Notes under the pieces: generated by a model
Told to the model about the DNA's origin: nothing
What the model saw: only the letters and a program-made list of their open reading frames with translations
Databases searched by the model: none
In this document: one piece after another, positions 7,668 to 63,508 of the stretch
Position numbering within the stretch: the stretch's first letter is position 1
Layout of the letters: the number at the start of each line of letters is the position of its first letter
Source: a phage
Sequence record: PZ445489.1
Direction: 5' to 3' (one strand)
Length of the DNA: 64,000 nucleotides
Translations under genes and position numbers: made by a program

Positions 7668-7729
7668 GCTAAAAAGCTAGACTGGTAATATACAGGCCTG
7701 GGTATGAAAATACTCGGGCCTTTTCTATC

Positions 7730-7783
7730 AGAAAATTTTATTTGCCTAATGACCAATAATAATGTAGAATATTCCTTAAATCC
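7730..7783 (+). promoter_or_regulatory. T5-type promoter upstream of nrdA
   Basis: TTGCCT 7742-7747, 17-nt spacer, TAGAAT 7765-7770. Confidence 0.55.
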
Positions 7784-7808
7784 TGATAACTATAAAAAGG
7801 AAAGCCAA

Positions 7809-10139
7809 ATGAGCCATCGCATTGAAAAAGTAATTAAACGTGACGGTACTGTAGAAGACTTTGCTCCTGAAAAACTCAATGGTTGGGCAGAGTATGGTTG
7901 CAAAACAGTTGATGTAAGTTGGTCAGCCATTACTATGGCTGCTCAAAAAACTCTACCTAAAGGGGTTGTAGATTCCGACACTCTGATGGACGCATTAATT
8001 AAAGCTGCTGAAAGTCTTATCAAAGATAATCCAGCATACGATGTGCCAGCAAAGGAATTACGTCTTGCGCAAATGCGTAAACGCCTTTATGATTCTTTCG
8101 AACCACCCTCTCTACGCTTCTTCCATGACCATATGGTTAGCGTAGGTGCATGGGAAGACATGAGTGCATGGATTACCGATGAGCAATTTGAAGCTCTGAA
8201 TCAGGTTATAGACCACGATCGTGACCGTCTTTTTACTAGTGGTGGACTGAAGCAGTTCTTTGATAAGTATTCCCGTCGTAACATAGCCACTGGTGAAATT
8301 TACGAAACCCCGCAGTTTGCCTACATGGGTATGGCAATGGCGATGTTATCTCAACCTAACTGGACAATTCTAGATGCAATCGACCTCTACAACGCAATGT
8401 CACTCCACAAAATCAACGTTCCTACGCCGCCACTGGTTGGTCTGCGCTCTAGTGACCGTGGATTTGCTAGTTGCTGCCTCGTGGATTCCACTGACACGTT
8501 GGATTCAATCGACACCGCCGAGCACATCGTCTTCAAAATGGTCGCAGCCAGAGCGGGAATCGGGTATCATCTTGAAAGCCGATCAATTGCTGATCCGGTG
8601 CGAAATGGGGCATTCCCACATTCCGGAAAACTGCCATATTATCGACACATTGACCGCTCAGTAAAGGCCAATACTCAGCAAACTCGTGGTGGTTCTGCCA
8701 CAGTGTCTTATCCATACTTCGACCCTGAAATCATTCAATTGATGCAGGTTAAGCAACAACGTGCTACAGATGAGAATAAAATCGATAAGATGGATTATTC
8801 TCTGAGCTTTAACAATCTTTTGTTAAAACGTTATCTTAAAAACGAGGATATTACGCTAATGTCATACTTCTATGCTCCAGAAGTTCATGAAGCGTTTTAT
8901 AGTGATGACGAGGCTAAATTTGAAGAAATCTACGTGGCAGCGGAGAAACGTGTGGCATCTCTTACAAAGATCGACCACGAAGGAAAAACAGTTCCTGCAG
9001 CTCCTAAAGTCTCTGCAAAAGAAATCCTAGATACTTGGCTACGTATCCGAATGGAAACAGGACGTATGTATGCTCATCACATCGGGGAATCTAATCGTCA
9101 CGGTAACTTCCTTGATCCAATCCGTATGACAAACCTTTGTGTTGAAATTACTCAGCCTACGCGCCCGTTCCATCATATCACAGAACTGTATAAGACAAAA
9201 GAGCAGCTTGATCAAATGAAGCCGGAGGATATTGGTGAAGTATCTCTGTGTAACTTAGGTGGTGTTGTACTGGGGCGCATGGAATCTCTGGCTGAGTGGG
9301 AAAAAACTTGCTACATCCTCCTGAAATTCGTTGATACAATTATTGAAATTCAGGATTATCCGTTCCCAACTATGGAATATACGGCTAAGAAACGTCGTAA
9401 TGTTGGTATTGGCCTAATGAACGCAGCAGGTGCAATGGCAGCAGAAGGTCTGGCTTATGAAGGTATTGAAGCCCGTAACTGGATTCACCGTGAGGCTGAA
9501 AAACTGTCCTACTTCCTGCATAAAGCCTCTGTACGCCTAGCTAAAGAACAGGGTGCATGTGAGTGGTTTGATCGTACTAAACCATCTAAAGGAATTCTGG
9601 TAATCGACACGTACAAGAAAACTGTTGATGAACTGGTATCCGTAGGTCTAGAAATGGATTGGGAGTCTCTGCGTGCAGATATTCTGAAATACGGTATGCG
9701 TAACTCTGTTCTGACTGCTCAGATGCCAGGAGAAAGTTCTTCTGTTCTGTTAGGTGTTACTAATTCTATTGAACCGCCTCGTAAGATTGTATCTATCAAG
9801 GGTAGTGCAGTGAATAAAGTAATTGCAATTGCTCCGGGTGCAACCGATTGGGAAACGTTAATGAGCTATAAACTGGCTTATGATGTAGATCGTATCGAGT
9901 GGATCAAATGGGTAGCAACTATGCAGAAATTCTTCAGTCAGTCTATCAGTACGAATATGTACTATGACTACACCAAGTTTGAGAATGAAATCATTCCTGG
10001 TCCAGTAGTAGTTCGTGATTTCATGACTGCTGTTAAGTATGGGTGGAAGACTTTCTACTACGCAAACTTCAACACCGCTAATGGTGGTGGTGCAGGGGAA
10101 GAATCCGCAGGCTGCGCTTCTGGTGGTTGTACCATCTAA
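7809..10139 (+). CDS. nrdA: ribonucleoside-diphosphate reductase alpha subunit (class Ia)
   Basis: ATP-cone HRIEKVIKRDGT, NLCVEI active-site region, C-terminal CASGGC; start chosen at ATG 7809 after promoter and RBS. Confidence 0.9.
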   Translation: MSHRIEKVIKRDGTVEDFAPEKLNGWAEYGCKTVDVSWSAITMAAQKTLPKGVVDSDTLMDALIKAAESLIKDNPAYDVPAKELRLAQMRKRLYDSFEPPSLRFFHDHMVSVGAWEDMSAWITDEQFEALNQVIDHDRDRLFTSGGLKQFFDKYSRRNIATGEIYETPQFAYMGMAMAMLSQPNWTILDAIDLYNAMSLHKINVPTPPLVGLRSSDRGFASCCLVDSTDTLDSIDTAEHIVFKMVAARAGIGYHLESRSIADPVRNGAFPHSGKLPYYRHIDRSVKANTQQTRGGSATVSYPYFDPEIIQLMQVKQQRATDENKIDKMDYSLSFNNLLLKRYLKNEDITLMSYFYAPEVHEAFYSDDEAKFEEIYVAAEKRVASLTKIDHEGKTVPAAPKVSAKEILDTWLRIRMETGRMYAHHIGESNRHGNFLDPIRMTNLCVEITQPTRPFHHITELYKTKEQLDQMKPEDIGEVSLCNLGGVVLGRMESLAEWEKTCYILLKFVDTIIEIQDYPFPTMEYTAKKRRNVGIGLMNAAGAMAAEGLAYEGIEARNWIHREAEKLSYFLHKASVRLAKEQGACEWFDRTKPSKGILVIDTYKKTVDELVSVGLEMDWESLRADILKYGMRNSVLTAQMPGESSSVLLGVTNSIEPPRKIVSIKGSAVNKVIAIAPGATDWETLMSYKLAYDVDRIEWIKWVATMQKFFSQSISTNMYYDYTKFENEIIPGPVVVRDFMTAVKYGWKTFYYANFNTANGGGAGEESAGCASGGCTI

Positions 10140-10198
10140 TATTAACAAGGGGACATACGTCCCCTTTATTAGACCTTCTATGGCTGTAATTTTAAATT

Positions 10199-10681
10199 AT
10201 GGAAGAAAAATACAAAGAAATAGTGGGGTTATTTGATTATAATCCAGAAACAGGGATATTTACCCATAAAGCTAGAGAAGATAAATCCTTCAATACTAGA
10301 TTTGCTGGCAAAGAAGCTGGTTCTCTAGAAAAATGCTCTGGATATATTGTAATGCAAGTAAAAGGCACTAAGTATTACGCGCATATCCTAGCATTCCTTA
10401 TCGTTAATGGGTATATTCCAAAGGAAGTAGATCACGATAATAGAATACGGCACGATAACCGAGCTATTAATTTAAAGGCCTCTGACAGACACAGTAATGG
10501 TAAAAATGTCGGGGCGCACAAAGATAATAAATTAGGTATTAAAAATATTCACCAAAAAGCGAGTGGATCTTACCAGGTACAGATAGCCCGTAAAGGTGTA
10601 AAATATACTAAAACATTCAAAGAACTTGAGGATGCTATAGAGTGGCGCGATATGAAACTATTGGAGCTTGATAGTTTATAA
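10199..10681 (+). CDS. HNH homing endonuclease
   Basis: HNH-like VDHDNRIRHDNRAINL plus C-terminal AP2-like DNA-binding region; sits between nrdA and nrdB. Confidence 0.7.
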   Translation: MEEKYKEIVGLFDYNPETGIFTHKAREDKSFNTRFAGKEAGSLEKCSGYIVMQVKGTKYYAHILAFLIVNGYIPKEVDHDNRIRHDNRAINLKASDRHSNGKNVGAHKDNKLGIKNIHQKASGSYQVQIARKGVKYTKTFKELEDAIEWRDMKLLELDSL

Positions 10682-10729
10682 TTTTACTTGCTAATCGCTA
10701 CCAGATTTGCTATAATATTCCTGAAATAG
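10676..10729 (+). promoter_or_regulatory. T5-type early promoter
   Basis: TTGCTA 10688-10693, 17-nt spacer, TATAAT 10711-10716. Confidence 0.6.
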
Positions 10730-10747
10730 TGAGAAAGAGGAAAATCA

Positions 10748-11893
10748 ATGACTACTTTACTAAACCTGAATTGGGATCATACTAATGCTGACCTTTTCCT
10801 GGGAGATTCTCTCGGTATCGCAGATTATGTACGTGTAGCACATCCAGAACTAGAACGTCTGGCACTTCTGCAACGCTCTCAATTTTGGACTGAAACTGAG
10901 ATCAGTCTGGAAGCAGATAAGAAACAATGGCCTAACCTCCCACGGGAAATTCAGGAAATTACACTCCTGAACTTAGCATGGCAGACTCAAACAGACTCCT
11001 TTATCAGTCGTGCTCCTGAAGCAGCTATTATGCCACTTGTAAGTCGTCCAGAATTGGAAGGTATGCTCAAACAGTGGAGCTATTTTGAAGACCTGCATAG
11101 TCGTGCTTATAGCAATATTATTCGTAATGTGCTGACTGACCCAGCAGAATTTATTGATTCTGTAACCAAAAACCAAGAAGCATTCGCACGCATCGCTGAT
11201 TCTGTTGAACTATTCGATGAACTGTACCTGTTAGGTCAGTATTTCATTGCAGTACGCGATCATCGTGGCGACAATACATACCCAGAAACTGAGTTCCCTG
11301 AAGTTAAACGTGAAACTCAGGCTAAACTATTAGACGCTTACTTTGCGATCTACGGTCTGGAAGCAATGCAGTTTTACGCATCCTTTGCATGTACCTTTGC
11401 ATTAGCAGAGAATGATATTCTGCAAGGTATTGCTAAAAATCTGCAATTAATCGCTAAAGATGAAGCTCTGCATACTCAGATGTCCAAAGCAATCATCCAG
11501 ATTATGTTTCAGCAATTTGACAAAGATCTGGTAGATGAAGCAGTGGCTAAAGCACCAGCACAGCTCCTGAAAACTCTGAAAACTGAAATTGAATGGGGTC
11601 ATTTCATTTTCAAAGGTCGTAGTCTGATTGGCTTGAACGCAGAACTTCTAGAAGAATATCTGTACTTTGTGGGGCGTAATGCATTTATGCACATTGGTGT
11701 AGAATGGCCTAGTCACTTACCAGTAATCACCAAAAACCCTATTCCGTGGATCATGAACTGGTTGGATACTACTTCTCTACAGCCTGCTCCACAAGAAATT
11801 CAGATTGGTGCAGCTTACCGTGTAGGTCAGGTAACTGAGACATCTACTGATACTCTGAAAGATCTGGGTAATGAATTTGGAGATTTCTTATGA
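10748..11893 (+). CDS. nrdB: ribonucleoside-diphosphate reductase beta subunit
   Basis: 381 aa; di-iron ligand motifs EDLHSRAY and EALHTQ. Confidence 0.9.
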   Translation: MTTLLNLNWDHTNADLFLGDSLGIADYVRVAHPELERLALLQRSQFWTETEISLEADKKQWPNLPREIQEITLLNLAWQTQTDSFISRAPEAAIMPLVSRPELEGMLKQWSYFEDLHSRAYSNIIRNVLTDPAEFIDSVTKNQEAFARIADSVELFDELYLLGQYFIAVRDHRGDNTYPETEFPEVKRETQAKLLDAYFAIYGLEAMQFYASFACTFALAENDILQGIAKNLQLIAKDEALHTQMSKAIIQIMFQQFDKDLVDEAVAKAPAQLLKTLKTEIEWGHFIFKGRSLIGLNAELLEEYLYFVGRNAFMHIGVEWPSHLPVITKNPIPWIMNWLDTTSLQPAPQEIQIGAAYRVGQVTETSTDTLKDLGNEFGDFL

Positions 11894-23116: not shown

Positions 23117-23635
23117 ATGAATGTTGATGAGCTAACACAGCACCTCTTATCTAGAGGATTTGATACAGATAAATATCATTGCTGGTTAAGTCCGGAAGGA
23201 TGGCTAACAGTCCCGTTGTATGACTTCTCTGGGATGTTGAGGGGCTATCAAACTTATAATCCTTCTGCTCCAAAAGGTCATGGTAAGTGCCCCTTTGAAG
23301 CTAAATACTTTACTTATTCTACTACCCAGTGTGTATGGGGACTAGAAACTCTCAATGGAGATGAAAAAGTAGTATTGATTGCTGAATCTGTATTTAAGGC
23401 AGTTGCGTTACATAATGCTGGTTATCCAGCCCTAGCAATGTTGGGTTCTTCTCCAGGAAAAGCGTTATTAAAGCAACTGAAATTACTACCTTTTAAATTG
23501 GTAGCTGTCGGAGATAATGATCCTGCGGGTGAAAAATTTGCTAGAAAATTAAACGGCTTTGTTTCTCCCGTAGATGTGGATGAGATGTCTACCGAAAACT
23601 TGAAAAATTTTCTTGCTATGAAGCTAAATTTCTAA
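23117..23635 (+). CDS. Toprim-domain-like protein (172 aa)
   Basis: VVLIAESVFKAVAL..LVAVGDNDPAGEKFARKL resembles Toprim acidic motifs; ATG 23117 after GAAAGAGG. Confidence 0.45.
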   Translation: MNVDELTQHLLSRGFDTDKYHCWLSPEGWLTVPLYDFSGMLRGYQTYNPSAPKGHGKCPFEAKYFTYSTTQCVWGLETLNGDEKVVLIAESVFKAVALHNAGYPALAMLGSSPGKALLKQLKLLPFKLVAVGDNDPAGEKFARKLNGFVSPVDVDEMSTENLKNFLAMKLNF

Positions 23636-23655
23636 TATAATATATCTTATAAATT
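23600..23655 (+). promoter_or_regulatory. T5-type promoter inside 3' end of CDS, upstream of tRNAs
   Basis: TTGCTA 23613-23618, 17-nt spacer, TATAAT 23636-23641. Confidence 0.55.
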
Positions 23656-23656
23656 C

Positions 23657-23745
23657 GGAAGAATAGCATAACGGTATTGCAGCAGATTGCTAATCTGTCG
23701 GTTTGAAATATAGCCTTGTGGGTTCGATTCCCGCTTCTTCCGCCA
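23657..23745 (+). tRNA. tRNA-Ser (anticodon GCT)
   Basis: Acceptor ggaagaa/ttcttcc, anticodon loop TTGCTAA, 19-nt variable arm, T-loop TTCGATT, CCA. Confidence 0.7.
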
Positions 23746-23751
23746 AATTCT

Positions 23752-23829
23752 GGTTCTCAAGCTCATATGGTATGAGCACCCGGCTCATAACCGGAAGGTA
23801 CGTAGGTTCGAATCCTCGGGGAGCCACCA
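23752..23829 (+). tRNA. tRNA with anticodon CAT (Met, fMet or Ile2 undetermined)
   Basis: Acceptor ggttctc/gggagcc (2 G-U), anticodon loop CTCATAA, T-loop TTCGAAT, CCA; T-stem has 2 mismatches. Confidence 0.55.
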
Positions 23830-24333: not shown

Positions 24334-24410
24334 GGGGGTGTAATCGAATTGGCATAGGTACTGGACTTAAAATTCAGGTTTTGTGGGTTCGAATCCCACC
24401 ACCCCTACCA
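24334..24410 (+). tRNA. tRNA, anticodon TAA (Leu codon UUA) with short variable loop
   Basis: Acceptor gggggtg/cacccct, anticodon stem ctgga/ttcag, loop CTTAAAA, T-loop TTCGAAT, CCA. Confidence 0.55.
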
Positions 24411-24425
24411 AACTAAGGAAATAAG

Positions 24426-24593
24426 ATGTATAGACATCCACCTCCGCCAACACGTCGTTCTAGAGAAGTTATCCTCATGGAATTGACTAAAAACTTCAAG
24501 GCAACTCTTGAAGATAGAGATCTAGGTACAGATGAAGACGTTGATTTCATTTGTAAACTATTAAAAATGAAGCTGGAGAAACATCATGGCTAA
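24426..24593 (+). CDS. hypothetical protein (55 aa)
   Basis: ORF with AAGGAA RBS; stop overlaps next start. Confidence 0.4.
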   Translation: MYRHPPPPTRRSREVILMELTKNFKATLEDRDLGTDEDVDFICKLLKMKLEKHHG

Positions 24594-24792
24594 CCGTGAA
24601 ATTACTATGCAACGAATCATGACTAAAGGCATGATAGCCGAGGCAGGTATTGAACAAGAAGTAAAAGGCTATTACGAACAGATTAAGACTATTATAGACT
24701 CTGCTAAAAACACCGGAGAAAAAGAACACGGTGCAGCAATTATGGCTATAACTCTTATTAGCCTAGACTTAGCTGAAGAATCTGGAGTTTAG
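24586..24792 (+). CDS. hypothetical protein (68 aa)
   Basis: ORF, ATGGCTAA overlap with upstream ORF. Confidence 0.45.
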   Translation: MANREITMQRIMTKGMIAEAGIEQEVKGYYEQIKTIIDSAKNTGEKEHGAAIMAITLISLDLAEESGV

Positions 24793-24809
24793 CTCCTCCA
24801 AACAGAATT

Positions 24810-24868
24810 TTTAAAAATGTACTTGCCTTTTGCTTTAAATTTCTGATATAATAGTTGTATAAATTGAT
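24810..24868 (+). promoter_or_regulatory. T5-type early promoter
   Basis: TTGCCT 24823-24828, 18-nt spacer, TATAAT 24847-24852. Confidence 0.6.
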
Positions 24869-24882
24869 GAAGGAGTTAACGA

Positions 24883-25158
24883 ATGCAAAATCGTGTTGTA
24901 GCAACTGGTATTGAAAGTGCAATCTGCAAATCCTGGGAAGACTGGGAAGGTGAGATTGAGTGGCTCTATCTCTATAACGTAGATCTTCTACCGGAGGTTA
25001 AAGCTAAATGTATTGAAGCTGGCATGGCTCCAGATGCAAAAGCTGATATTGATATTTCAATGTCTGAACTTAAAGGTCGTGTAATTACTGTTAGTGATGA
25101 GGGCGAAGAAGTTTTCGAACTTCCGTTCTCCTTAACTGTCACTCCTAAGTTCGACTAA
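24883..25158 (+). CDS. hypothetical protein (91 aa)
   Basis: ORF with AAGGAG RBS. Confidence 0.5.
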   Translation: MQNRVVATGIESAICKSWEDWEGEIEWLYLYNVDLLPEVKAKCIEAGMAPDAKADIDISMSELKGRVITVSDEGEEVFELPFSLTVTPKFD

Positions 25159-25181
25159 CTAATACAGCACTGAGCAAGTTC

Positions 25182-25238
25182 TTTAAAATTTGACTTGCTC
25201 AGTGCCTTAAAACTTGGTATAATATTTACCTAATTTGG
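25182..25238 (+). promoter_or_regulatory. T5-type promoter upstream of tRNA block
   Basis: TTGCTC 25195-25200, 16-nt spacer, TATAAT 25217-25222. Confidence 0.55.
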
Positions 25239-25288
25239 AAACATATTTAAAAGTGTTTAAATGAGAATTTTTGAATACTTCTAAATAT

Positions 25289-25379
25289 GTTGGATTAGTA
25301 TCGTAGAGGTAGCGAAGCAGACTGTAAATCTGCCGACTCGGAAGGGTCTCGGGTGGTTCGACTCCATCATCCAACACCA
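25289..25379 (+). tRNA. tRNA-Tyr (anticodon GTA)
   Basis: Acceptor gttggat/atccaac, anticodon stem gcaga/tctgc, loop CTGTAAA, 18-nt variable arm, T-loop TTCGACT, CCA. Confidence 0.7.
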
Positions 25380-25386
25380 AATTTAA

Positions 25387-25463
25387 GTCCTGTTAGACAA
25401 ACTGGTAAAGTCACTACCCTTTCAAGGTAGGATTTGCGGGTTCGATCCCCGCACAGGACGCCA
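25387..25463 (+). tRNA. tRNA-Glu (anticodon TTC)
   Basis: Acceptor gtcctgt/acaggac, anticodon stem ctacc/ggtag, loop CTTTCAA, T-loop TTCGATC, CCA. Confidence 0.7.
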
Positions 25464-25471
25464 ATTTCTGC

Positions 25472-25548
25472 ATTCCTAGAGTGTTACTGGACAGCATGTC
25501 GGTCTCCAAAACCGTACGGTCTAGGTTCGAGTCCTAGTAGGTTTGCCA
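25472..25548 (+). tRNA. tRNA-Trp (anticodon CCA), possibly degenerate
   Basis: Perfect T-arm ctagg-TTCGAGT-cctag, anticodon loop CTCCAAA, CCA; acceptor stem has two U-U mismatches. Confidence 0.5.
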
Positions 25549-25554
25549 AAATTT

Positions 25555-25629
25555 GCACCTTTAGCTGAGATGGATTAGCGCTTGCCTGAAGAGCTTGAGA
25601 GGTTCGTTCGATACGAACAGGGTGCACCA
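25555..25629 (+). tRNA. tRNA-Phe (anticodon GAA)
   Basis: Acceptor gcacctt/agggtgc, T-arm gttcg-TTCGATA-cgaac, loop CTGAAGA; anticodon stem has 2 mismatches. Confidence 0.5.
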
Positions 25630-25646
25630 AATTGAAGGAGCTGCTG

Positions 25647-25919
25647 ATGCATCCTGAAAACTTCTTTATTTACTGCGCTGATAAGTCGCTAAAACGTAGA
25701 ATTAACAAAGTCTACCATTATCGTGCTAGTCAACAGCCTTATGTATATGCTTTTGACGGTGATCACATTCCATTAGAACAATTATCTTGTGATTACATGA
25801 TATTAAAGAACTTTGACGAGACGAAGATCTCAAGCGTTCACAATCGGCAGAATCCATTAACGTGGAAATATAAGAAGAAAAAGAAAGGCATCAAATTCTT
25901 AAAAAATATAGTTGCTTAG
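25647..25919 (+). CDS. hypothetical protein (90 aa)
   Basis: ATG 25647 after AAGGAG RBS (track start 25632 is TTG). Confidence 0.5.
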   Translation: MHPENFFIYCADKSLKRRINKVYHYRASQQPYVYAFDGDHIPLEQLSCDYMILKNFDETKISSVHNRQNPLTWKYKKKKKGIKFLKNIVA

Positions 25920-25955
25920 TTTCCAAAAGTTCTGTATAATAATTACATAAATTGA
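25898..25955 (+). promoter_or_regulatory. T5-type promoter
   Basis: TTGCTT 25912-25917, 17-nt spacer, TATAAT 25935-25940. Confidence 0.55.
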
Positions 25956-25988
25956 ACTGGAGAAGCAACATGACAGAACAAGATAAAC

Positions 25989-26064
25989 CGACCGTTGGCT
26001 GAATGGCTTAGGCGAAGGATTGCAAATCCTTTTTATGTGAGTTCAAATCTCATGCGGTCGTCCA
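25989..26064 (+). tRNA. tRNA-Cys (anticodon GCA)
   Basis: Acceptor cgaccgt/gcggtcg, anticodon stem aagga/tcctt, loop TTGCAAA, T-loop TTCAAAT, CCA. Confidence 0.65.
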
Positions 26065-26071
26065 AATTTTA

Positions 26072-26154
26072 GGGTCGTTAGCCAAGCGGTTTGGCGGTGG
26101 ACTGTTAATCCATGTCGAAAGACAACGTAGGTTCGAATCCTACACGGCCCGCCA
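26072..26154 (+). tRNA. tRNA-Asn (anticodon GTT) with 13-nt variable hairpin
   Basis: Acceptor gggtcgt/acggccc, D-stem gcca/tggc, anticodon loop CTGTTAA, variable gtcGAAAgac, T-arm gtagg-TTCGAAT-cctac, CCA. Confidence 0.6.
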
Positions 26155-26256
26155 AATTCTGTGTAGAGTTAAGTAAACCGGTAGCCAACCAGCTATCATT
26201 GCTGACATCGAATTCAGCCACAGATACCATTTTCATTAATAACTGAGGAAACAAGC

Positions 26257-26442
26257 ATGTCCAAGAATGTAATTGCGCAGCTAGAAGTTCATCGTGATAG
26301 CACTATCAACAATATTGAAGTTGAAAAGAAATACATCGAAGAACTTAAACATGATATACTAGTGAGTCTCAACCGTCTTAATGTACGAAAAGAGTTTCTT
26401 AAAGAACTTAATGCAGCTATTGAAAAACTCAAAGCTGAGTAA
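26257..26442 (+). CDS. hypothetical protein (61 aa)
   Basis: ORF with GAGGAA RBS. Confidence 0.45.
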   Translation: MSKNVIAQLEVHRDSTINNIEVEKKYIEELKHDILVSLNRLNVRKEFLKELNAAIEKLKAE

Positions 26443-26451
26443 ATGAATTAT

Positions 26452-26528
26452 GCGACCGGGGCTGGCTTGGTAATGGTACTCCCCTGTCACGGGAGAGAAT
26501 GTGGGTTCAAATCCCATCGGTCGCGCCA
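26452..26528 (+). tRNA. tRNA-Asp (anticodon GTC)
   Basis: Perfect acceptor gcgaccg/cggtcgc, anticodon stem ctccc/gggag, loop CTGTCAC, T-loop TTCAAAT, CCA. Confidence 0.75.
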
Positions 26529-26554
26529 AATTAATTTAGTATGAGAAATATGCT

Positions 26555-26902
26555 ATGATTAATGCTAAAGAAGAATTGTTACTTGCCCTAAAGAATACTA
26601 ATTCTGAAGTTAAGTGTATTAAGATAGAATTCGGTTATTATGGAGACAAAGAAGTTTGGGTATTACCCGTAGGTTATACAGAAAAAGATATTGAAGATTT
26701 TCTAAATAATCTAGACTTTAAATATGATTCTGGTTTCGGTGGACAATTGCTTTATGGTAACGTATGGTTTACTGATGGAACTTGGTTAGAACGTGGTGAA
26801 TATGATGGTTCTGAATGGTGGGAATATAAGACTACACCAGCAATTCCAGAGGAATGCCGAACAATTAATGGTGAAGTAGATCGTACTTTACTATTAAATT
26901 AA
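26555..26902 (+). CDS. hypothetical protein (115 aa)
   Basis: ORF. Confidence 0.5.
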   Translation: MINAKEELLLALKNTNSEVKCIKIEFGYYGDKEVWVLPVGYTEKDIEDFLNNLDFKYDSGFGGQLLYGNVWFTDGTWLERGEYDGSEWWEYKTTPAIPEECRTINGEVDRTLLLN

Positions 26903-27024
26903 CAAAATCTCAGTGCAGAACACGGAGCTAGCAATTCGGAAGTGCTGACTCATGATAAGCTGCCTATGTACTTGCGAAGCGGTCGTGTCCAAGACTCGGA
27001 CTCTTGCACTGAAAACAATCAAAC

Positions 27025-27145
27025 ATTCTAGCGTGGTTGATGGGGAAACCAGCTTGGCTAGGGCAGAAGCTCGTTCGATTCGAGTGAAAGAATGGTTCTC
27101 GTAAGTCCGCACAAGTGATAGCAGGTTCGAGTCCTGTCTAGAATG
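27025..27145 (+). ncRNA. tRNA-like RNA with about 50-nt internal expansion (about 121 nt)
   Basis: Perfect 7-bp acceptor pairing attctag/ctagaat 113 nt apart, canonical T-arm gcagg-TTCGAGT-cctgt, D-arm-like hairpin; no normal anticodon arm. Confidence 0.35.
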
Positions 27146-27334
27146 ACATATTCTGGAGGTTTTGTGAATTACAAAGAATTAGATCTTTTAGCAAATAAAT
27201 TCACAGAGCTATCTGATAACGTTGTATCAAAGGACTCCAACATAGATAATTTTATTACTGAATATCGTGATGGTATAATCTCTAAACAAGAGTTGTTAGA
27301 TAAAACGTATAAATATTTAAAGGGGTTCAGCTAA
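27143..27334 (+). CDS. hypothetical protein (63 aa)
   Basis: ORF; start overlaps end of tRNA-like element; weak RBS. Confidence 0.35.
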   Translation: MTYSGGFVNYKELDLLANKFTELSDNVVSKDSNIDNFITEYRDGIISKQELLDKTYKYLKGFS

Positions 27335-27631
27335 ACGGTTAAGCACTGTCCTACTTCGGACAGAGGGAGTAACACGTAGTCTCCCAAACTCCCCCAAATT
27401 TAGATTTCTGCTTCCTAGAGAACGGACTTCTGAATAAACAAGGCGATGAAGTTTCCGGCCGGTTCTAGTCGCTAAAGTCCCTCTAACGGGGCGTAAGTAA
27501 ATGAAAGTTTACTTATTATGTAGGTTCCGATAGATCGGCGGGTCTATTCTGGCATTTAAGAGAGGTCTCGCAAACTTCTTTGTCAGCCGTGGGGTTGGTA
27601 GCCTCCAGGTGGCCTACACAATAAGTAAATT

Positions 27632-27692
27632 TATTAAAAATTCATTTGCTATTCTGCTATATTATCTGTATAATATATTTTATAAAGTGAAG
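27632..27692 (+). promoter_or_regulatory. T5-type early promoter
   Basis: TTGCTA 27646-27651, 17-nt spacer, TATAAT 27669-27674. Confidence 0.65.
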
Positions 27693-27706
27693 AGAAGGAA
27701 AGCAAA

Positions 27707-27865
27707 ATGAAACACAAGATAGCTCAAGTTTTTATGACATTATGGTGTATGCCAATAGCTATAACAGCATTTAATCTAGATACTTTTACTATAGAAGAAA
27801 AATGTATCGGATTAGTTAGCGGCTTTAGTATGCTGGGCTTATCTTTGTTGTGGTTGAAGAAATAA
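27707..27865 (+). CDS. small hydrophobic membrane protein (52 aa)
   Basis: ATG after GAAGGAAAG RBS and promoter; below ORF-track cutoff. Confidence 0.4.
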   Translation: MKHKIAQVFMTLWCMPIAITAFNLDTFTIEEKCIGLVSGFSMLGLSLLWLKK

Positions 27866-27868
27866 TAT

Positions 27869-27946
27869 TCTCCGTGTAGCTCAGTTTGGCCAGAGCGTTT
27901 CGTTTGGGGCGATAGGGTCGGGGGTTCAAATCCTCCCACGGAGACC
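27869..27946 (+). tRNA. tRNA-Pro (anticodon TGG)
   Basis: Acceptor ctccgtg/cacggag, D-arm TAGCTCAGTTTGGCCAGAGC, loop TTTGGGG, T-loop TTCAAAT, CCA. Confidence 0.65.
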
Positions 27947-27952
27947 AAACAA

Positions 27953-28030
27953 TTGCGGGTTAGATCTCTGGTAGAGATCGCTAGTCTCATAAGCTAGAAA
28001 GAGGTAGGTTCGATTCCTGCACCCGCTTCC
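27953..28030 (+). tRNA. tRNA with anticodon CAT (Met, fMet or Ile2 undetermined)
   Basis: D-stem gatc/gatc, anticodon stem ctagt/gctag, loop CTCATAA, T-loop TTCGATT, CCA; position 1:72 is U-U. Confidence 0.6.
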
Positions 28031-28220
28031 ACTTTAATAGAGGATTTCGAAATGAAAGTATTTCGATTAGTAGTAAGTGACAAACGTTTAGGTAATAATA
28101 CCTCAAGATCCTTACTTGCACATTATGGTAAAAATTGGGATGAAGTAATGGCAGAGTTTAATACTAATCACCCTTACTTGAAAGTTCACTCTATTAAAGA
28201 GGTATATAATGGTTACTAAT

Positions 28221-28298
28221 AGATCGCTAGCTCAACTGGATAAGAGTAGCGGACCTTTAATCCGTCAGTTCTGGGTTCGAATCCCAGGCGATCTACCA
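28221..28298 (+). tRNA. tRNA-Lys (anticodon TTT)
   Basis: Acceptor agatcgc/gcgatct, D-arm GCTCAACTGGATAAGAGT, loop CCTTTAA, T-arm ctggg-TTCGAAT-cccag, CCA. Confidence 0.65.
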
Positions 28299-28302
28299 AA
28301 TT

Positions 28303-28376
28303 GCTCGGTTAGTTTAATGGGAGAACCCCGTCTTTACACGGCGGTTGTGATAGTTCGATTCTATCACCGAGTACCA
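28303..28376 (+). tRNA. tRNA-Val (anticodon TAC)
   Basis: Acceptor gctcggt/accgagt, anticodon stem ccgtc/ggcgg, loop TTTACAC, T-arm gatag-TTCGATT-ctatc, CCA. Confidence 0.65.
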
Positions 28377-28395
28377 ATTAACTCAAAATAAGGAA

Positions 28396-28764
28396 TTGCA
28401 AATGCAATTATCAAACAAGATTCAAGGTTATTTCGGTCATGTGACAATGGAGTTCGCATTGCAGCATGGCTGGGATATGGAAAAAGATCTATCGGAATTT
28501 TATGAGTCTCATAAAGAGATTGATCTTAGTTCTGTCTATTTGGGATTATCTACTGGTCAAGAACTTACAGAATATGATGTATTCAAGGCAAGTCAAGGTG
28601 AGATAACACCTAGTTTTGCCGAGTTCTGGCTAGGAATTACCTTGAAGGATAATGCACCAGATGAAGGTGTGGTTATGCAAAGTATGCACTCTGGAAGCTC
28701 TGATTACCTTTACGTTCGTGATGTAAAGGAACTACAGGAAATCGCTAAAAATGTACTTGCTTAA
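28396..28764 (+). CDS. hypothetical protein (122 aa)
   Basis: ORF with AAGGAA RBS. Confidence 0.5.
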   Translation: MQMQLSNKIQGYFGHVTMEFALQHGWDMEKDLSEFYESHKEIDLSSVYLGLSTGQELTEYDVFKASQGEITPSFAEFWLGITLKDNAPDEGVVMQSMHSGSSDYLYVRDVKELQEIAKNVLA

Positions 28765-28803
28765 TGCTTAATTTCTTGTTATAATATTTATATAAATTGA
28801 TGC
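28743..28803 (+). promoter_or_regulatory. T5-type promoter (overlaps 3' end of CDS)
   Basis: TTGCTT 28757-28762, 17-nt spacer, TATAAT 28780-28785. Confidence 0.6.
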
Positions 28804-29124
28804 GAAAATAGCTGCCTAGATACCAGGTGTATGACGTCTACACTAGCAGAGCTACCGAAAAAGAGATCCTCAGGATAAACGTCGTAGCAAAATTAGTCTG
28901 GTATCCATCAATTTAGTTCACTAAGGTATTAGCTCGACCTAGGACTGGCTGCCAAAAAGCACGATCCCTACAATTCGGGAGAAGTTCTAGATTAGTCCAC
29001 TAGATTCAGCGGCAACTGAATAGTGTATCGGGTTTGCGAGATGACGCAGTTCCTTCCGCTCGAAGCGAAGGTGCTGTAGTTACGCCGAGCTAATAGCCTT
29101 AGTAAACTTACAGGGGTTAACGCA

Positions 29125-29511
29125 GTGTGTACAAAAACATGTAGAGCCTGTGGGAATGAATATCCGTTAACAACCGAATATTTTTATTCGAATGGATTTA
29201 CTCCTAATGGCACAAAGAAGTGGAAGCCAACATGTAAAGCATGTGAAAAAGCTGAACGAGTAGCTGGACATGAAGAATTAATTAAAGAAGTATTTCCTGT
29301 ATTAGAATGTAGTATTTGTGGATATAATAGGTGTAAACAAGCCCTAGATTTCCACCGTACTAATCCAGAAGAAAAGGAATACTCCATTGCAAGGTTTAGA
29401 ACTTCTCGTAGAAACAGAGAAGTAGTAATAGCAGAACTTAAAAAGTGCGTACTATTATGCTCTAACTGCCATAGAGAAGTACATGCTGGATTAATAAATT
29501 TGGGCGAATAG
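29125..29511 (+). CDS. HNH endonuclease
   Basis: C-terminal LLCSNCHREVHAG HNH motif plus CxxC pairs; GTG start; stop codon lies inside tRNA-Ala acceptor stem. Confidence 0.6.
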   Translation: MCTKTCRACGNEYPLTTEYFYSNGFTPNGTKKWKPTCKACEKAERVAGHEELIKEVFPVLECSICGYNRCKQALDFHRTNPEEKEYSIARFRTSRRNREVVIAELKKCVLLCSNCHREVHAGLINLGE

Positions 29512-29577
29512 TGTCAGCGGGAGCACACCAGACTTGCAATCTGGTAGGGAGGGTTCGAGTCCCTCTTTGTCCACCAA
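29503..29577 (+). tRNA. tRNA-Ala (anticodon TGC)
   Basis: Acceptor gggcgaa/tttgtcc (2 G-U), anticodon stem ccaga/tctgg, loop CTTGCAA, T-arm gaggg-TTCGAGT-ccctc, CCA. Confidence 0.7.
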
Positions 29578-29582
29578 ATACG

Positions 29583-29659
29583 CGTGATTGATGGAATTGG
29601 CATACATACCGTCCTTAGAAGTCGGGTTTTGAGGGTTCGAATCCCTTGTCACGCACCAA
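29583..29659 (+). tRNA. tRNA, anticodon TAG (Leu codon CUA) with short variable loop
   Basis: Acceptor gcgtgat/gtcacgc, D-loop AATTGGCAT shared with tRNA at 24334, loop CTTAGAA, T-loop TTCGAAT, CCA. Confidence 0.55.
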
Positions 29660-29771
29660 ATTTGATGGTCAGAGTAAATTAAACCTACTATCTCGGTTGA
29701 GCTGTTTTAATGGGTTCGAATCCCAGCGAGGCGTAACTGCCTGGTGTGATAGAGGCATCATCTTATTATTG

Positions 29772-29862
29772 GAAGAGCAAATCGAATTGGCGACGAAAAC
29801 CGCTTGGAAAGTGGCTGACTGGTAAAACGGCTTGAGAGTTCAAATCTCTCCTCTTCCGCCAA
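29772..29862 (+). tRNA. tRNA-Ser (anticodon GGA)
   Basis: Acceptor ggaagag/ctcttcc, anticodon loop TTGGAAA, 18-nt variable arm, T-arm gagag-TTCAAAT-ctctc, CCA; architecture parallels E. coli tRNA-Ser. Confidence 0.65.
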
Positions 29863-61585: not shown

Positions 61586-63508
61586 ATGAGTTTTTTCGCT
61601 GGCAAGCTAAATAACAAATCTATACTCTCTCTACGCAGGGGTAGTGGCGGAGATACTAATCAACATATTAATCCTGACTCTCAGACCATATTCCATTCAG
61701 ATATGCCCCATGTTATCATAACAGAAACTCACTCCACAGGGTTGAGGCTAGATCAAGGTGCTGGAGATTACTACTGGTCTGATATGCCTAGCAGAATTAC
61801 CCAGTTACATAATAATGATCCTAATAGGGTTGTGCTGACAGAGATTGAGTTCTCAGATGGCTCTAGACATATGCTATCTGGCATGTCTATGGGGGTAGGA
61901 GCTAAAGCGTATGGAATTATAAATCCGCAGGTCATGTCTCAAGGTGGTTTAAAAACACAAATAACAGCTAGTGCTGATCTATCTCTTGATGTAGGCTATT
62001 TTAATAGTGGTACTAGCGGTACGATCCCCCAGAAGCTTAGAGATGGTACTGGATGTCAGCATATGTTTGGAGCCTTTAGTGGGCGTAGAGGATTTGCATC
62101 TAGTGCAATGTACTTAGGCGGTGCCGCTCTTTACAAATCTGCCTGGGATGGTTCAGGATATGTAGTGCCGGATTCAGGAACTCTAACTATCCCTAGCGAC
62201 TACGTTAGGCATCCAGGAGCTAGAAACTTTGGATTTAACGCCATATATGTTCGTGGTAGGTCTTGTAATAGAGTTCTTTATGGTATGGAAGGGCCCAACT
62301 ACACCACTGCTGGAGCTGTACATGGGGCGTCGAGTTCAGGGGCTCTTAACTTTATGTCTAATCCTAGCAATCCCTCGGCTCCTAAGTACTCTGTAGGTTT
62401 CGCACGTGCTGATCCCACTAACTATGCGTATTGGGAAAGTATGGGTGATCCGAATGATGCTGCTAATGGGCCCATAGGTATATATAGTGAGCACCTCGGT
62501 ATTTATCCATCTAAAATTACCTGGTATGTTACTAACTTAGTGTATAATGGTTCAGGTTATAGTATTGATGCTGGATTATTTACAGGTAATGATATAAAAT
62601 TAAGCCCCACTGAATTTATTATTAAAGGTATTAACGTTAATAATACATCTTGGAAGTTTATCAACTTTGTTGAGAAAAACTTTAATGTAGGGAGCAGAGC
62701 TGATTTTCGTGATGTTGGGTGTAACTTGAGTATGGGTGGCCCCTCTACTGGGATCTCTGGCATAGCAACATTTGGACTACCAACCACAGAAAGCAATAAC
62801 GCACCAAGTATTAAGGGTGGTAACGTTGGTGGTTTAAATACTAATGTAGTTAGTATTTATAACTTTTTACCTTCAGCATCTTGGTATGTTTCTAGTAATC
62901 CTCCAAAAATAGGGAGTAATTATGGGGACGTTTGGAGTGAAAATCTTCTACCTTTAAGACTTCTAGGTGGTAGCGGAAGTACTGTACTATCTGGTAACAT
63001 AGTATTTCAGGGTAATGGTTCCGTGCATGTTGGTACCGTGGGACTAGATCTTAATAGTAGTAGAAATGGTGCAATTGTATGTACTATGGAGTTCCTAGAT
63101 GACACATGGTTGTCTGCAGGAGGTATTGGCTGCTTTAATCCTACGGAAATGCTATCTAAAGGCGCTGAATATGGCGATAGTAGGTTTAGAATGGGTGGCA
63201 ATACTATTGATAAAAAACTTCACCAAATATTGTCCCTACCTGCAGGAGAATATGTACCATTTTTTACTATTAAAGGTACTGTAGTAAATGCTTGTAAATT
63301 ACAGGCTGCTGGGTATACTCCAACTCCGTACTGGGTATCTGGGTTGCCAGGATCCGTAGGTCAAACGGGTTACTATACTCTAACATACTATATGAGAAAT
63401 GATGGAAATAATAATATCTCTATTTGGTTAGAATCCTCTATGAGCAATATAATTGGCATGAAAGCATGCTTACCAAATATTAAACTTATAATTCAACGCC
63501 TTACCTAA
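61586..63508 (+). CDS. oad: receptor-binding tail protein pb5-like
   Basis: 640 aa, the size of T5 pb5 as I recall it; Gly/Ser/Asn-rich; adjacent and divergent to llp-like gene. Confidence 0.65.

Follow-up and report, generated by a model that had tools for sequence, protein, structure and literature searches.

Two tRNA genes with leucine anticodons, UAA and UAG, lie in the window (the whole stretch of 64,000 nucleotides of phage DNA analyzed here, record PZ445489.1), and both fold without the long variable arm expected for bacterial tRNA-Leu. The question is whether such genes are functional and which amino acid their products carry. The window belongs to a T5-like phage (Tequintavirus). Both genes were called by ARAGORN and by the Rfam model RF00005, for which the gathering score is 29 (Table 1). 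The Rfam scores are 57.4 bits (E 1.9e-10) for tRNA-Leu(UAA) and 47.5 bits (E 1.1e-7) for tRNA-Leu(UAG), so the two belong to RF00005 both by their cloverleaves and by scores above the curated threshold. The original prediction, made from the sequence alone, had located the first gene exactly; for the second its anticodon was right, but its interval, 29583-29659, was one base too far to the right. ARAGORN, which it had proposed as a check, did not shift either anticodon. When each sequence was folded by itself, the structure of lowest energy was not the cloverleaf, a point counted against the leucine explanation given below.

Table 1. Positions of the two Leu-anticodon tRNA genes, their parts and the upstream promoter in the window
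Feature	Position	Strand	Description	Basis
Promoter P15b	23594..23668	+		75/75 identity to 'promoter P15b' feature of AJ604531 (phage 5)
tRNA-Leu(UAA), class I	24334..24410	+	74-nt body + encoded CCA	ARAGORN, Rfam
D loop GAATTGGCATA, UAA tRNA	24346..24356	+	leucine-type, 11 nt on 3-bp D stem	ARAGORN cloverleaf
Anticodon TAA in loop CTTAAAA	24368..24370	+		ARAGORN anticodon position 35
Variable loop GTTTT, UAA tRNA	24378..24382	+	5 nt; final base U48 = A15 partner (Levitt pair)	
Discriminator A73 + encoded CCA, UAA tRNA	24407..24410	+	A73 at 24407	cloverleaf, sequence
tRNA-Leu(UAG), class I	29582..29658	+	74-nt body + encoded CCA	ARAGORN, Rfam
D loop GAATTGGCATA, UAG tRNA	29594..29604	+		cloverleaf, sequence
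Anticodon TAG in loop CTTAGAA	29616..29618	+		ARAGORN, sequence
Variable loop GTTTT, UAG tRNA	29626..29630	+	5 nt	cloverleaf
Discriminator A73 + encoded CCA, UAG tRNA	29655..29658	+	A73 at 29655	cloverleaf, sequence

The ARAGORN cloverleaves of both tRNAs have an acceptor stem of 7 bp, a D stem of 3 bp and an anticodon stem of 5 bp, and they share an identical 11-nt D loop, the T loop TTCGAAT, A73 and an encoded CCA. The variable loops, predicted to be of 4-5 nt, are 5 nt long in each case. Neither tRNA has the stem-loop of at least 10 nt that marks class II; both combine a leucine anticodon and leucine determinants with a variable loop of 4-5 nt and are thus class I tRNA-Leu. The Ser tRNAs (89-90 nt) and the Tyr tRNA (91 nt) of the same window retain their long arms (ARAGORN). 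In a search with the architecture pattern, the two Leu sites were the sole matches in the window and 100 shuffles gave none. These cloverleaves and this unique pattern establish the anticodon position and confirm the class I layout. In the UAG tRNA the anticodon stem contains a U30.U40 mismatch, and position 37 is A, versus G37 in E. coli leuW. The U.U mismatch and the A37 in place of an m1G37 site were counted against the leucine explanation.

Both genes are known from Salmonella phage 5 (AJ604531), tRNA-Leu(UAA) being identical to tRNAL2 at 77 of 77 positions and tRNA-Leu(UAG) to tRNAL1, also at 77 of 77. According to that record, phage 5 tRNAL1 is identical to its BF23 counterpart, and tRNAL2 (UAA) becomes an effective amber suppressor when its anticodon is swapped to CUA. 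Amber suppression by the CUA variant implies that this tRNA is aminoacylated and accepted by the ribosome. Transfer RNAs with a CUA anticodon are open to mischarging. The suppressor note in AJ604531 is silent on the inserted amino acid. Promoter P15b lies upstream of a co-oriented run of tRNA-Ser(GCU), tRNA-Ile2(CAU), small ORFs and tRNA-Leu(UAA), and it probably drives transcription of the last of these. The UAG gene starts 5 nt past tRNA-Ala(UGC).

The features by which leucyl-tRNA synthetase (LeuRS) recognizes its substrates may be compared with these bodies directly. The E. coli enzyme requires A73, A15-U48, G18G19, A20a and the tertiary pairs between D and T loops; it needs neither the long arm nor the anticodon, and variants without the arm stay active (PMC9976931). 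In the UAA tRNA the D-loop region is numbered G13 A14 A15 U16 U17 G18 G19 C20 A20a U21 A22, and both window tRNAs have U8, A14, A15 with U48, G18G19, A20a, the T loop UUCGAAU and A73 as in E. coli tRNA-Leu. When they are aligned without gaps to five Leu genes of E. coli, both show the tertiary core in place (U8-A14, A15:U48, G18G19 placement, A20a, U54-A58 and U55C56), in terms of positions rather than of 3D pairing. The D arm has a 3-bp stem and an 11-nt loop, GAAUUGGCAUA in both window tRNAs versus GAAUUGGUAGA in E. coli class II tRNA-Leu; parsed together with the five Leu genes from E. coli K-12, the loop reads GAATTGGCATA versus GAATTGGTAGA. A 3-bp D stem with a large loop was seen in all class II tRNA-Leu parsed (E. 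coli K-12, T5 L1 and Aeromonas phage 4_4572). Both anticodons, TAA and TAG, are of the leucine form, NAA or NAG with A35.

Profile comparisons point in the same direction. When the Leu profiles were built from class II tRNAs only, masking the anticodon and leaving out the variable region, Leu ranked first for the UAA tRNA (44.6 vs 30.6 bits, a margin of 14.0) and for the UAG tRNA (38.1 vs 26.6 bits, a margin of 11.5); the classifier correctly assigned 16 of the 21 other tRNAs in the window. A combined signature of A73, A14, A15:U48 and a D arm of at least 17 nt is present in 116/143 armless and 36/50 class II Leu tRNAs, versus about 4% of the other class I tRNAs of the same loci. Taken singly, A73 occurs in 137 and A15:U48 in 133 of the 143 armless phage Leu tRNAs. 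The alanine mark G3:U70 is absent, the 3-70 pair being G-C in both window tRNAs, and UAA and UAG are not the anticodons needed by the Ile, Val, Met, Lys, Phe, Thr, Pro, Arg or Tyr systems. Judged from these sequence features, other identities are unlikely, since there is no G3:U70 and neither anticodon fits an anticodon-reading synthetase that accepts A73. The charging identity of both tRNAs is probably leucine, because the LeuRS determinants are kept, the arm is dispensable, the body is of the leucine type and the amber-suppressor note indicates charging. The doubt expressed earlier about charging is formally justified, and no aminoacylation result for these phage tRNAs was found, but the doubt is smaller than had been supposed.

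The D loop common to the two tRNAs, which the original prediction had correctly noticed, had been taken as a sign that they are paralogs. This conclusion does not follow from it. The 11-nt length is that of all five Leu tRNAs retrieved from E. coli K-12, and the sequence agrees with leuV and leuU at 9/11 positions, with leuW and leuZ at 8/11 and with leuX at 7/11. Among 84 diverse armless Leu tRNAs, A14, A15, U16, U17, G18 and G19 are each at least 90% conserved. The loops of the two window genes are all identical except for the third anticodon base, and their stems agree at 20 of 40 positions, to be set against a background of 46% among unrelated armless Leu tRNAs. Because the D loop is conserved in Leu tRNAs and the stems are at background identity, sharing of the loop is not evidence of recent paralogy; the loop is instead a leucine identity motif that reflects function. 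Common descent of the two genes is possible, but it would be old.

Taken together, the two loci are very probably functional Leu tRNA genes of a T5-like phage which have lost the long variable arm and kept the rest of the leucine body. Their transcription would take place along with that of the remaining early genes in the tRNA region of the phage, and processing would yield 77-nt tRNAs with a gene-encoded CCA. Host LeuRS may then charge both. In E. coli this enzyme reads A73 and the elbow and core shape (U8-A14, A15:U48, G18G19 against U55C56, A20a and U54-A58) and ignores the anticodon and the long arm; the elements that it reads are all in the phage tRNAs. The amino acid so attached by the host enzyme would be leucine, and we infer that the arm was lost because this pairing with the host enzyme has no need of it. 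The charged UAA tRNA would decode UUA and UUG, and the charged UAG tRNA CUA and other CUN codons, which would match the UUA and CUA demand of the AT-rich phage. TTA makes up 24.0% and CTA 21.2% of the Leu codons in the 57 long ORFs of the window, and these two, together 45%, are its most-used Leu codons. In E. coli, UUA and CUA are rare and read by minor tRNAs. In NrdA and NrdB, the phage codon is aligned with E. coli Leu in 6/14 cases for TTA and 7/15 for CTA, and in 38/101 for all Leu codons.

Armless Leu tRNAs are common in phages, and the two window genes belong to an already known type. In a sample of viral contigs, about 19-25% of Leu genes are armless. Such tRNAs were also found in Felixounavirus, in actinobacterial chromosomes and in tRNA arrays. 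In a genome scan they occurred in arrays of 12-29 tRNAs per 8 kb, and in many Actinomycetota as single-copy chromosomal genes.

Could these genes be decaying pseudogenes, derived from class II Leu tRNAs by deletion? The original prediction had named pseudogenes as a possible refutation, in one GenBank record the UAG copy carries the label 'tRNA-Pseudo-TAG' (other copies are labeled 'tRNA-OTHER'), and the UAG tRNA has its anticodon-stem mismatch. However, 292 phage records contain the UAA gene at 99% identity or more, often between unrelated flanking sequences, 162 contain the UAG gene at 95% or more, and identity is 100% in many genomes with differing flanks. Broken stems and drift are not what is seen; instead there is near-invariance in 162-325 phage genomes together with compensatory changes. 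The Felixounavirus homologue shows compensatory pair changes at 2-71, 4-69 and 29-41, and the U30.U40 mismatch is itself conserved between T5-like phages and Felixounavirus, next to a pair that covaries. In a set of 84 different armless Leu tRNAs, pairing is found in 98.2% of stem cells and double changes occur at 20/20 stem pairs, giving a covariation score of 0.989 versus 0.234 when shuffled and at most 0.19 with partners slid. The acceptor stem, T arm and CCA are intact, suppressor activity is noted in AJ604531, and most stem positions differ from the class II allele of T5, so that the genes are no simple deletion derivative. Decay, contradicted by conservation and covariation, has practically no chance of being the explanation. 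It is also very improbable that the amino acid carried is not leucine, or that the tRNAs act as uncharged decoys or regulators, in either case with anticodons that do not report identity. The 'Pseudo' and 'OTHER' labels come from isotype-aware pipelines, and E. coli LeuRS was unable to charge a different type I tRNALeu from nature, that of Streptomyces coelicolor (PMC6614811); both points were counted against the leucine explanation. In addition, a crude profile test with the variable region kept gave the UAG tRNA a better rank for Gly than for Leu, an ambiguous result. Once that region is removed, though, both bodies are clearly Leu-like, and the positive LeuRS determinants are all present, whereas those of alanyl- and anticodon-reading synthetases are absent. 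Mischarging would be costly, as TTA and CTA are 45% of the phage Leu codons and stand at Leu-conserved positions. Across hundreds of genomes the genes hardly vary, and the suppressing CUA variant must be charged and used by the ribosome.

A different account accepts leucine as the amino acid and supposes that the armless form was selected as a counter-defence, by removing the handle that toxins use on class II tRNAs; the altered anticodon stem and position 37 would also help leucine decoding by the phage to survive an attack on host tRNA-Leu. MenT is related to AbiEii. The toxin MenT3 anchors on the long variable loop of class II tRNAs, and the paper describing this cites the phage abortive-infection toxin-antitoxin family AbiE (PMC11541572). 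It is known that phages can escape defences directed at tRNAs by means of their own tRNAs, whose sequences are altered (PMC10264068; PMC12445682; PMC11555353). The enrichment of armless Leu genes in phage tRNA clusters and the long-kept mismatch with its covarying neighbor are consistent with this account. Nevertheless, we consider it unlikely. Among the bacterial nucleases and toxins found, none targets tRNA-Leu via the long arm: MenT3 prefers tRNA-Ser (PMC11541572), the bacterial Schlafen Cash cuts the T loops of 28 tRNAs, and the Gifsy-1 terminase cuts the anticodon region of tRNA-Leu. Moreover, the phage Ser and Tyr tRNAs retain their arms, class I and class II alleles coexist in one phage genus, and the logic of phage counter-defence is inapplicable to the single-copy chromosomal genes of Actinomycetota.

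The reading of the genes as functional, armless Leu tRNAs may be set beside the leucine tRNAs already described. The class II tRNAs of E. coli (leuZ UAA, leuW UAG, leuQPV CAG, leuU GAG and leuX CAA) share with them the Leu anticodons, A73, U8/A14, A15:U48, G18G19, the 3-bp D stem with 11-nt loop, U54-A58 and the encoded CCA. They differ in having variable arms of 13-15 nt and a length of 85-87 nt, versus 5 nt and 77 nt in the phage tRNAs; outside the loops the bodies are 58-61% identical, and the phage UAG tRNA has C32 and A37 in place of the host U32 and the G37 of leuW. Comparison with the annotated T5 tRNAs, another proposed check, was informative, for T5 has a Leu(UAG) gene in the matching slot. 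This tRNAL1 (AY543070) likewise stands directly past tRNA-Ala(UGC), agrees in anticodon, D-arm type, A73 and CCA, and is also convertible to an amber suppressor; unlike the class I window tRNA, it is a class II molecule of 85 nt with a 13-nt variable arm. Its type is found in 52 records. The stems of the two differ at most positions, so they are alternative alleles and not a deletion pair; the class I and class II forms of Leu(UAG) are exchanged as alleles. At the position corresponding to Leu(UAA), T5 (AY543070) has no such gene.

Short variable loops occur in other natural leucine tRNAs. The type I tRNALeu(CAA) of S. coelicolor is also bacterial and coexists with class II isoacceptors, and armless actinobacterial Leu genes from the genome scan have A73, A15:U48 and a long D arm, as the phage tRNAs do. 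In contrast to the phage genes, that of S. coelicolor is chromosomal and is served by a LeuRS that has co-evolved with it, whose leucine-specific domain makes the charging of type I possible and for which A73 is no determinant (PMC6614811). Fan et al. 2019 stated that E. coli LeuRS 'only charges type II tRNALeu', its leucine-specific domain favoring a large variable loop (PMC6614811). The armless tRNALeu(CAA) genes of Streptomyces from the genome scan (not S. coelicolor) have a D loop of 12 nt versus 11 nt in the phage; one might guess that a 12-nt D loop caused the failure of the E. coli enzyme on the S. coelicolor tRNA. An armless Leu(UAG) lies, with an HNH endonuclease gene, in a horizontally acquired tRNA cluster described by Behra et al. 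2019 (PMC6582537), where it is mentioned in passing, for mycobacteria, with no link to enterobacterial phages and no analysis of identity. Animal mitochondrial tRNA-Leu also has a short variable loop, with A73 and A14 as determinants, but it is served by a dedicated LeuRS that also touches the anticodon stem and its structures are reduced and fragile, whereas the D- and T-loop elements of the phage tRNAs are canonical. Finally, the engineered armless E. coli tRNA-Leu of Asahara and of Larkin, as far as the summary in PMC9976931 goes, indicate that the enzyme needs A73 and the D/T-loop core and not the arm; these are laboratory constructs studied in vitro, and the phage genes resemble natural counterparts of them.

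T5-like phages (Tequintavirus), for example Escherichia phages Es2 and EC100, are 99-100% identical to the window over 251-base stretches around both leucine tRNA genes. The tRNA cluster of the window comprises 23 genes called by ARAGORN or 24 called by Rfam, and its features correspond one-to-one with the annotated tRNA region of Salmonella phage 5 (GenBank AJ604531). Over all 77 positions, tRNA-Leu(UAA) is identical to tRNAL2 of phage 5 and tRNA-Leu(UAG) to tRNAL1. They score 57.4 and 47.5 bits, respectively, with the Rfam tRNA model (threshold 29). ARAGORN places the UAA gene, with its TAA anticodon, exactly where it was originally predicted; for the UAG gene it returns the predicted TAG anticodon, and the predicted interval (29583-29659) proves to be shifted by one base. 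Both ARAGORN cloverleaves have a 7-bp acceptor stem, a 3-bp D stem with an 11-nt loop (GAATTGGCATA), a 5-bp anticodon stem (U30.U40 is unpaired in the UAG tRNA), the 5-nt variable loop GTTTT, the T loop TTCGAAT, A73 and a gene-encoded CCA. The position of the anticodon, which was to be checked by a software fold, is unambiguous in both, and the predicted class I (armless) architecture is real. The serine (89-90 nt) and tyrosine (91 nt) tRNAs of the window retain their long arms in the ARAGORN folds. In single-sequence folding the minimum-energy structures are not cloverleaves (z-scores -1.2 to -1.4), the D stems are weak, and the cloverleaves lie 3.8-3.9 kcal/mol above the minimum. Because this measure is uninformative for tRNAs with weak D stems, we relied on covariance-model and covariation evidence.

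Positions of the features discussed in the text
Feature	Position	Strand	Remarks
NrdA and NrdB homologues	7704-11893	+	40% and 33% identical to the E. coli proteins
tRNAI2, anticodon CAT (tRNA-Ile in the T5 annotation)	23752-23829	+	Rfam 40.3 bits; missed by ARAGORN
Extra bases (~290) relative to phage 5	24038-24333		AJ604531 4842-4848; between ORF trn2.2* and tRNA-Leu(UAA)
ORF of 61 aa	24047-24232		within the extra bases upstream of tRNA-Leu(UAA)
tRNA-Leu(UAA)	24334-24410	+	77 nt including CCA
tRNA-Asn(GTT)	26072-26154	+	83 nt; 13-nt variable region GTCGAAAGACAAC
tRNA-Ala(TGC)	29502-29576	+	T5-type allele; 88% over a stretch from tRNA-Ala into the Leu gene
tRNA-Leu(UAG)	29582-29658	+	77 nt including CCA
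U30.U40 of tRNA-Leu(UAG)	29611 and 29621	+
Position 37 of tRNA-Leu(UAG)	29619	+	A, after G36
tRNAS2 (Ser, GGA) stretch	29771-29861	+	91/91 identical to phage 5 tRNAS2
Receptor-binding protein	61586-63508	+	full-length match to T5 pb5, 1400 bits; PDB 8b14, 8a8c

Five E. coli K-12 leucine genes were parsed beside the phage genes, and in all five a 3-bp D stem carries an 11-nt D loop of the form G/A-AAU(U/C)GGUAGA. The phage loop, GAAUUGGCAUA, is equally long and departs from those of leuV and leuU at only two positions. Both phage tRNAs also have U8, A14, A15 together with U48, which ends the variable loop, G18G19, the equivalent of A20a, U54-U55-C56, A58 and A73. According to a review of tRNA identity, these are exactly the determinants of the E. 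coli leucyl-tRNA synthetase (LeuRS), for which the anticodon and the long variable arm are both dispensable, armless variants staying active (PMC9976931). Therefore, the shared D loop is a leucine identity motif.

Isotype profiles, one per isotype, were built from about 1,800 ARAGORN-called tRNAs with the anticodons masked, leucine being trained on class II tRNAs only. When the variable region was kept, Leu was the top profile for the UAA tRNA and Gly for the UAG tRNA, because the missing arm splits the local class II leucine profile. When it was removed from all sequences, Leu came first for both the UAA tRNA (44.6 versus 30.6 bits) and the UAG tRNA (38.1 versus 26.6 bits); this classifier was correct for 16 of the 21 other tRNAs in the window. 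By these profiles, each of the two phage tRNAs has the body of a leucine tRNA.

The two genes are also highly conserved. For the UAA gene, 292 phage records hold copies of at least 99% identity and another 33 hold copies of 95-99%, often between unrelated flanks. For the UAG gene, copies of at least 95% identity occur in 162 records, and relatives at 80-90% in about 300 others, mostly Felixounavirus. In the homologue from the Felixounavirus KhF2 there are compensatory pairs at 2-71, 4-69 and 29-41, and the U30.U40 mismatch is kept. The adjacent 29-41 pair covaries there from G-C to A-U, and the class II Leu(UAG) of T5 has a C31.U39 mismatch in place of U30.U40. The weakened anticodon stem of Leu(UAG) may be a selected feature, for which the resistance of a phage tRNA-Thr to P2-OLD (PMC12445682) offers a comparison. 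Regarding function, the AJ604531 record notes that swapping a CUA anticodon into tRNAL2 'converts this tRNA into effective amber suppressor', which implies that tRNAL2 is processed, charged by some synthetase and used by the ribosome.

Codon usage indicates what these tRNAs would be needed for. The G+C content of the window is 39.4%, and TTA (24.0%) and CTA (21.2%) are the two commonest leucine codons in its 57 long ORFs. Both are rare in E. coli, where they are read by minor tRNAs. When the phage NrdA and NrdB were aligned to the E. coli proteins, TTA stood opposite leucine in 6 of 14 cases and CTA in 7 of 15, compared with 38 of 101 for all leucine codons. Since TTA and CTA face E. coli leucine at least as often as leucine codons overall, selection expects leucine there. 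Taken together, both genes are very probably functional leucine tRNAs of the short-loop type, a type that is rare but known, here in coliphages. The original prediction had left their charging identity uncertain. This doubt is largely settled, and the two would be ordinary working parts of the phage translation toolkit, not recoding devices.

The original prediction also took the two genes for paralogs on account of their shared D loop. The loop is indeed shared; the paralogy does not follow from it, since the loop is the leucine motif and the stems agree only at background level. Overall, 52 of 74 positions are identical, and the loops are all identical but for the third anticodon base. In the stems, 20 of 40 positions agree, against a background of 46% between unrelated armless leucine tRNAs. 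Any common origin of the two genes is old, and their identical loops are better read as a shared functional constraint. Descent of the UAG gene by a simple deletion from the class II gene of T5 is rejected, the stems differing throughout. A BLAST search of 5,426 E. coli genomes found no chromosomal relative of the UAA gene, the only matches being of 23 nt, to the T arm of plasmid genes annotated as 'tRNA-OTHER'; therefore, the phage leucine genes are not recent host copies. These 'tRNA-OTHER' genes occur on 22 E. coli plasmids (for example, NZ_CP065971.1, 116625-116647), share 22 of 23 T-arm bases with the phage Leu(UAA), and may be phage-plasmid tRNA genes of unusual structure.

Several other genes of the cluster deserve mention. 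The 13-nt variable region of tRNA-Asn(GTT) can fold into a 3-bp stem capped by GAAA, a class II-like arm. The Asn isotype is normally class I, and the tRNA-Asn of T5 has 78 nt and is unrelated in sequence to the 83-nt form, whose CUA variant is recorded in AJ604531 as an amber suppressor. Long variable regions were called in 8 of 44 Asn and 11 of 50 Ile tRNAs among the IMG/VR loci listed. The window tRNAI2 is identical to that of phage 5 and homologous to that of T5; a compensatory change in the anticodon stem (G-C versus A-T) separates it from the latter. The tRNAS2 stretch escaped both ARAGORN and Rfam at the gathering threshold; its D loop, GAATTGGCGAC, is similar to that of the leucine tRNAs, and T5 tRNAS2 is recorded as not suppressor-convertible. 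HNH homing endonuclease genes are present in the tRNA regions of T5 and phage 5, and many relatives have in common only the Leu(UAA) tRNA and a few flanking bases. The 80-nt tRNA-Ala allele of phage 5 has no match in the window, where a T5-type Ala gene lies beside the class I Leu(UAG). Among relatives, then, adjacent tRNA genes assort independently of one another. The tRNA genes behave as conserved modules of a mosaic region.

Armless leucine tRNAs are not confined to these phages. In KhF2, the leucine genes for UAG, CAA and UAA all have 78-79 nt, alongside a Tyr gene of 88 nt and a Ser gene of 90 nt. Vibrio phage Thalassa has a Leu(UAG) of 77 nt, and Aeromonas phage 4_4572 has leucine genes of both 84 nt and 77 nt. 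A class I-spacing pattern found at least 143 distinct armless Leu-anticodon tRNAs in IMG/VR. Among the matches listed, A73 is present in 137 of 143, A15:U48 in 133 and a 17-nt D arm in 95; the combined leucine signature occurs in 116 of 143 armless and 36 of 50 class II leucine tRNAs, but in only about 4% of the remaining class I tRNAs at those loci. In 84 distinct armless sequences of the same layout among these matches, 98.2% of stem cells are paired, somewhat inflated by the choice of the set with a cloverleaf-finding program, and double changes occur at 20 of 20 pairs. The covariation score is 0.989, versus 0.234 for shuffled sequences and at most 0.19 for slid partners. A pattern admitting either class matched 18 class I and 79 class II genes in viral loci, and all distinct leucine genes in those loci number 38 and 115, respectively. 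The class I share of leucine genes on viral contigs is thus roughly one fifth to one quarter. This estimate depends on the pattern used, and host tRNA-Leu genes at the ends of prophages may dilute it.

In bacterial genomes, the class I pattern found at least 94 armless leucine genes. Among the matches listed, 66 are solitary chromosomal genes, mostly from Actinomycetota (UAA in Nocardia, Mycobacterium, Gordonia, Rhodococcus and Arthrobacter; CAA in Streptomyces), and the remaining ones, from cyanobacteria, Acidobacteriota and other groups, belong to arrays with 12-29 tRNAs per 8 kb. This agrees with the type I tRNALeu(CAA) of S. coelicolor (Fan et al. 2019; PMC6614811) and with a remark made in passing about a tRNA cluster of mycobacteria (PMC6582537), the only related items in the literature searched. 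Moreover, only Leu-2, -3 and -5 of M. tuberculosis are named as long-loop leucine tRNAs (PMC11541572), which suggests that its other leucine tRNAs lack the long loop. Both genes of the window have been annotated for two decades, one of them with suppressor data; the class I nature and phage breadth of such tRNAs do not appear in the literature searched.

Why was the arm lost? Most simply, no component of the E. coli system requires the arm. The long arm is a recognition element for bacterial TyrRS. It is likewise one for SerRS (PMC9976931). That these two synthetases use the arm and the E. coli leucine system does not would explain why the phage Ser and Tyr tRNAs keep theirs. Alternatively, loss of the arm is possibly a counter-defence against toxins that grip long variable loops, as MenT3 does by anchoring on them (PMC11541572). 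However, no system attacking tRNA-Leu via its long arm was found in the literature searched, MenT3 acting on tRNA-Ser being the nearest precedent. A broader reading would join these threads: armless leucine tRNAs would be a general, largely unremarked part of phage tRNA clusters (about one fifth of viral leucine genes), natural type I substrates of E. coli LeuRS in coliphages such as T5 relatives and Felixounavirus, and spread by escape from arm-gripping toxins or nucleases, a counter-defence open to leucine alone as SerRS and TyrRS need the arm. We consider this combination improbable as a whole, and dispensability of the arm remains the simplest account.

More generally, these genes amount to a natural experiment in tRNA identity. 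Leucine is the only one of the three long-armed families from which phages drop the arm, and in E. coli it is the one family whose synthetase is documented as arm-independent. The genes also pose an annotation problem, armless leucine genes being mislabelled 'pseudo' or 'other' by isotype-aware pipelines. If E. coli LeuRS charges them, they would provide a compact, orthogonal-looking leucine scaffold, already an amber suppressor, usable for engineering, and the published statement that this enzyme charges only type II tRNA-Leu would need qualifying. That statement comes from Fan et al. 2019, where E. coli LeuRS failed on the Streptomyces type I tRNA (PMC6614811). The armless Streptomyces CAA genes from our genome scan have a D loop of 12 nt, versus 11 nt in the phage genes, and our guess is that this difference may matter for the failure.

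At position 37 of Leu(UAG), where the window has A, E. coli leuW has G37, a site of m1G37. Among the matches listed, armless phage leucine tRNAs with NAG anticodons have A37 in 44 cases versus G37 in 25, and class II phage leucine tRNAs have 15 versus 11 among the loci listed. Since A37 is the commoner, many CUN-reading phage leucine tRNAs would not be TrmD substrates. The Leu(UAG) of T5 (GenBank AY543070), an allele of a type present in 52 records, occupies the same slot after tRNA-Ala and is also suppressor-convertible, but it is a class II tRNA of 85 nt with a 13-nt arm. The coexistence of class I and class II Leu(UAG) alleles in one genus argues that both do the same job.
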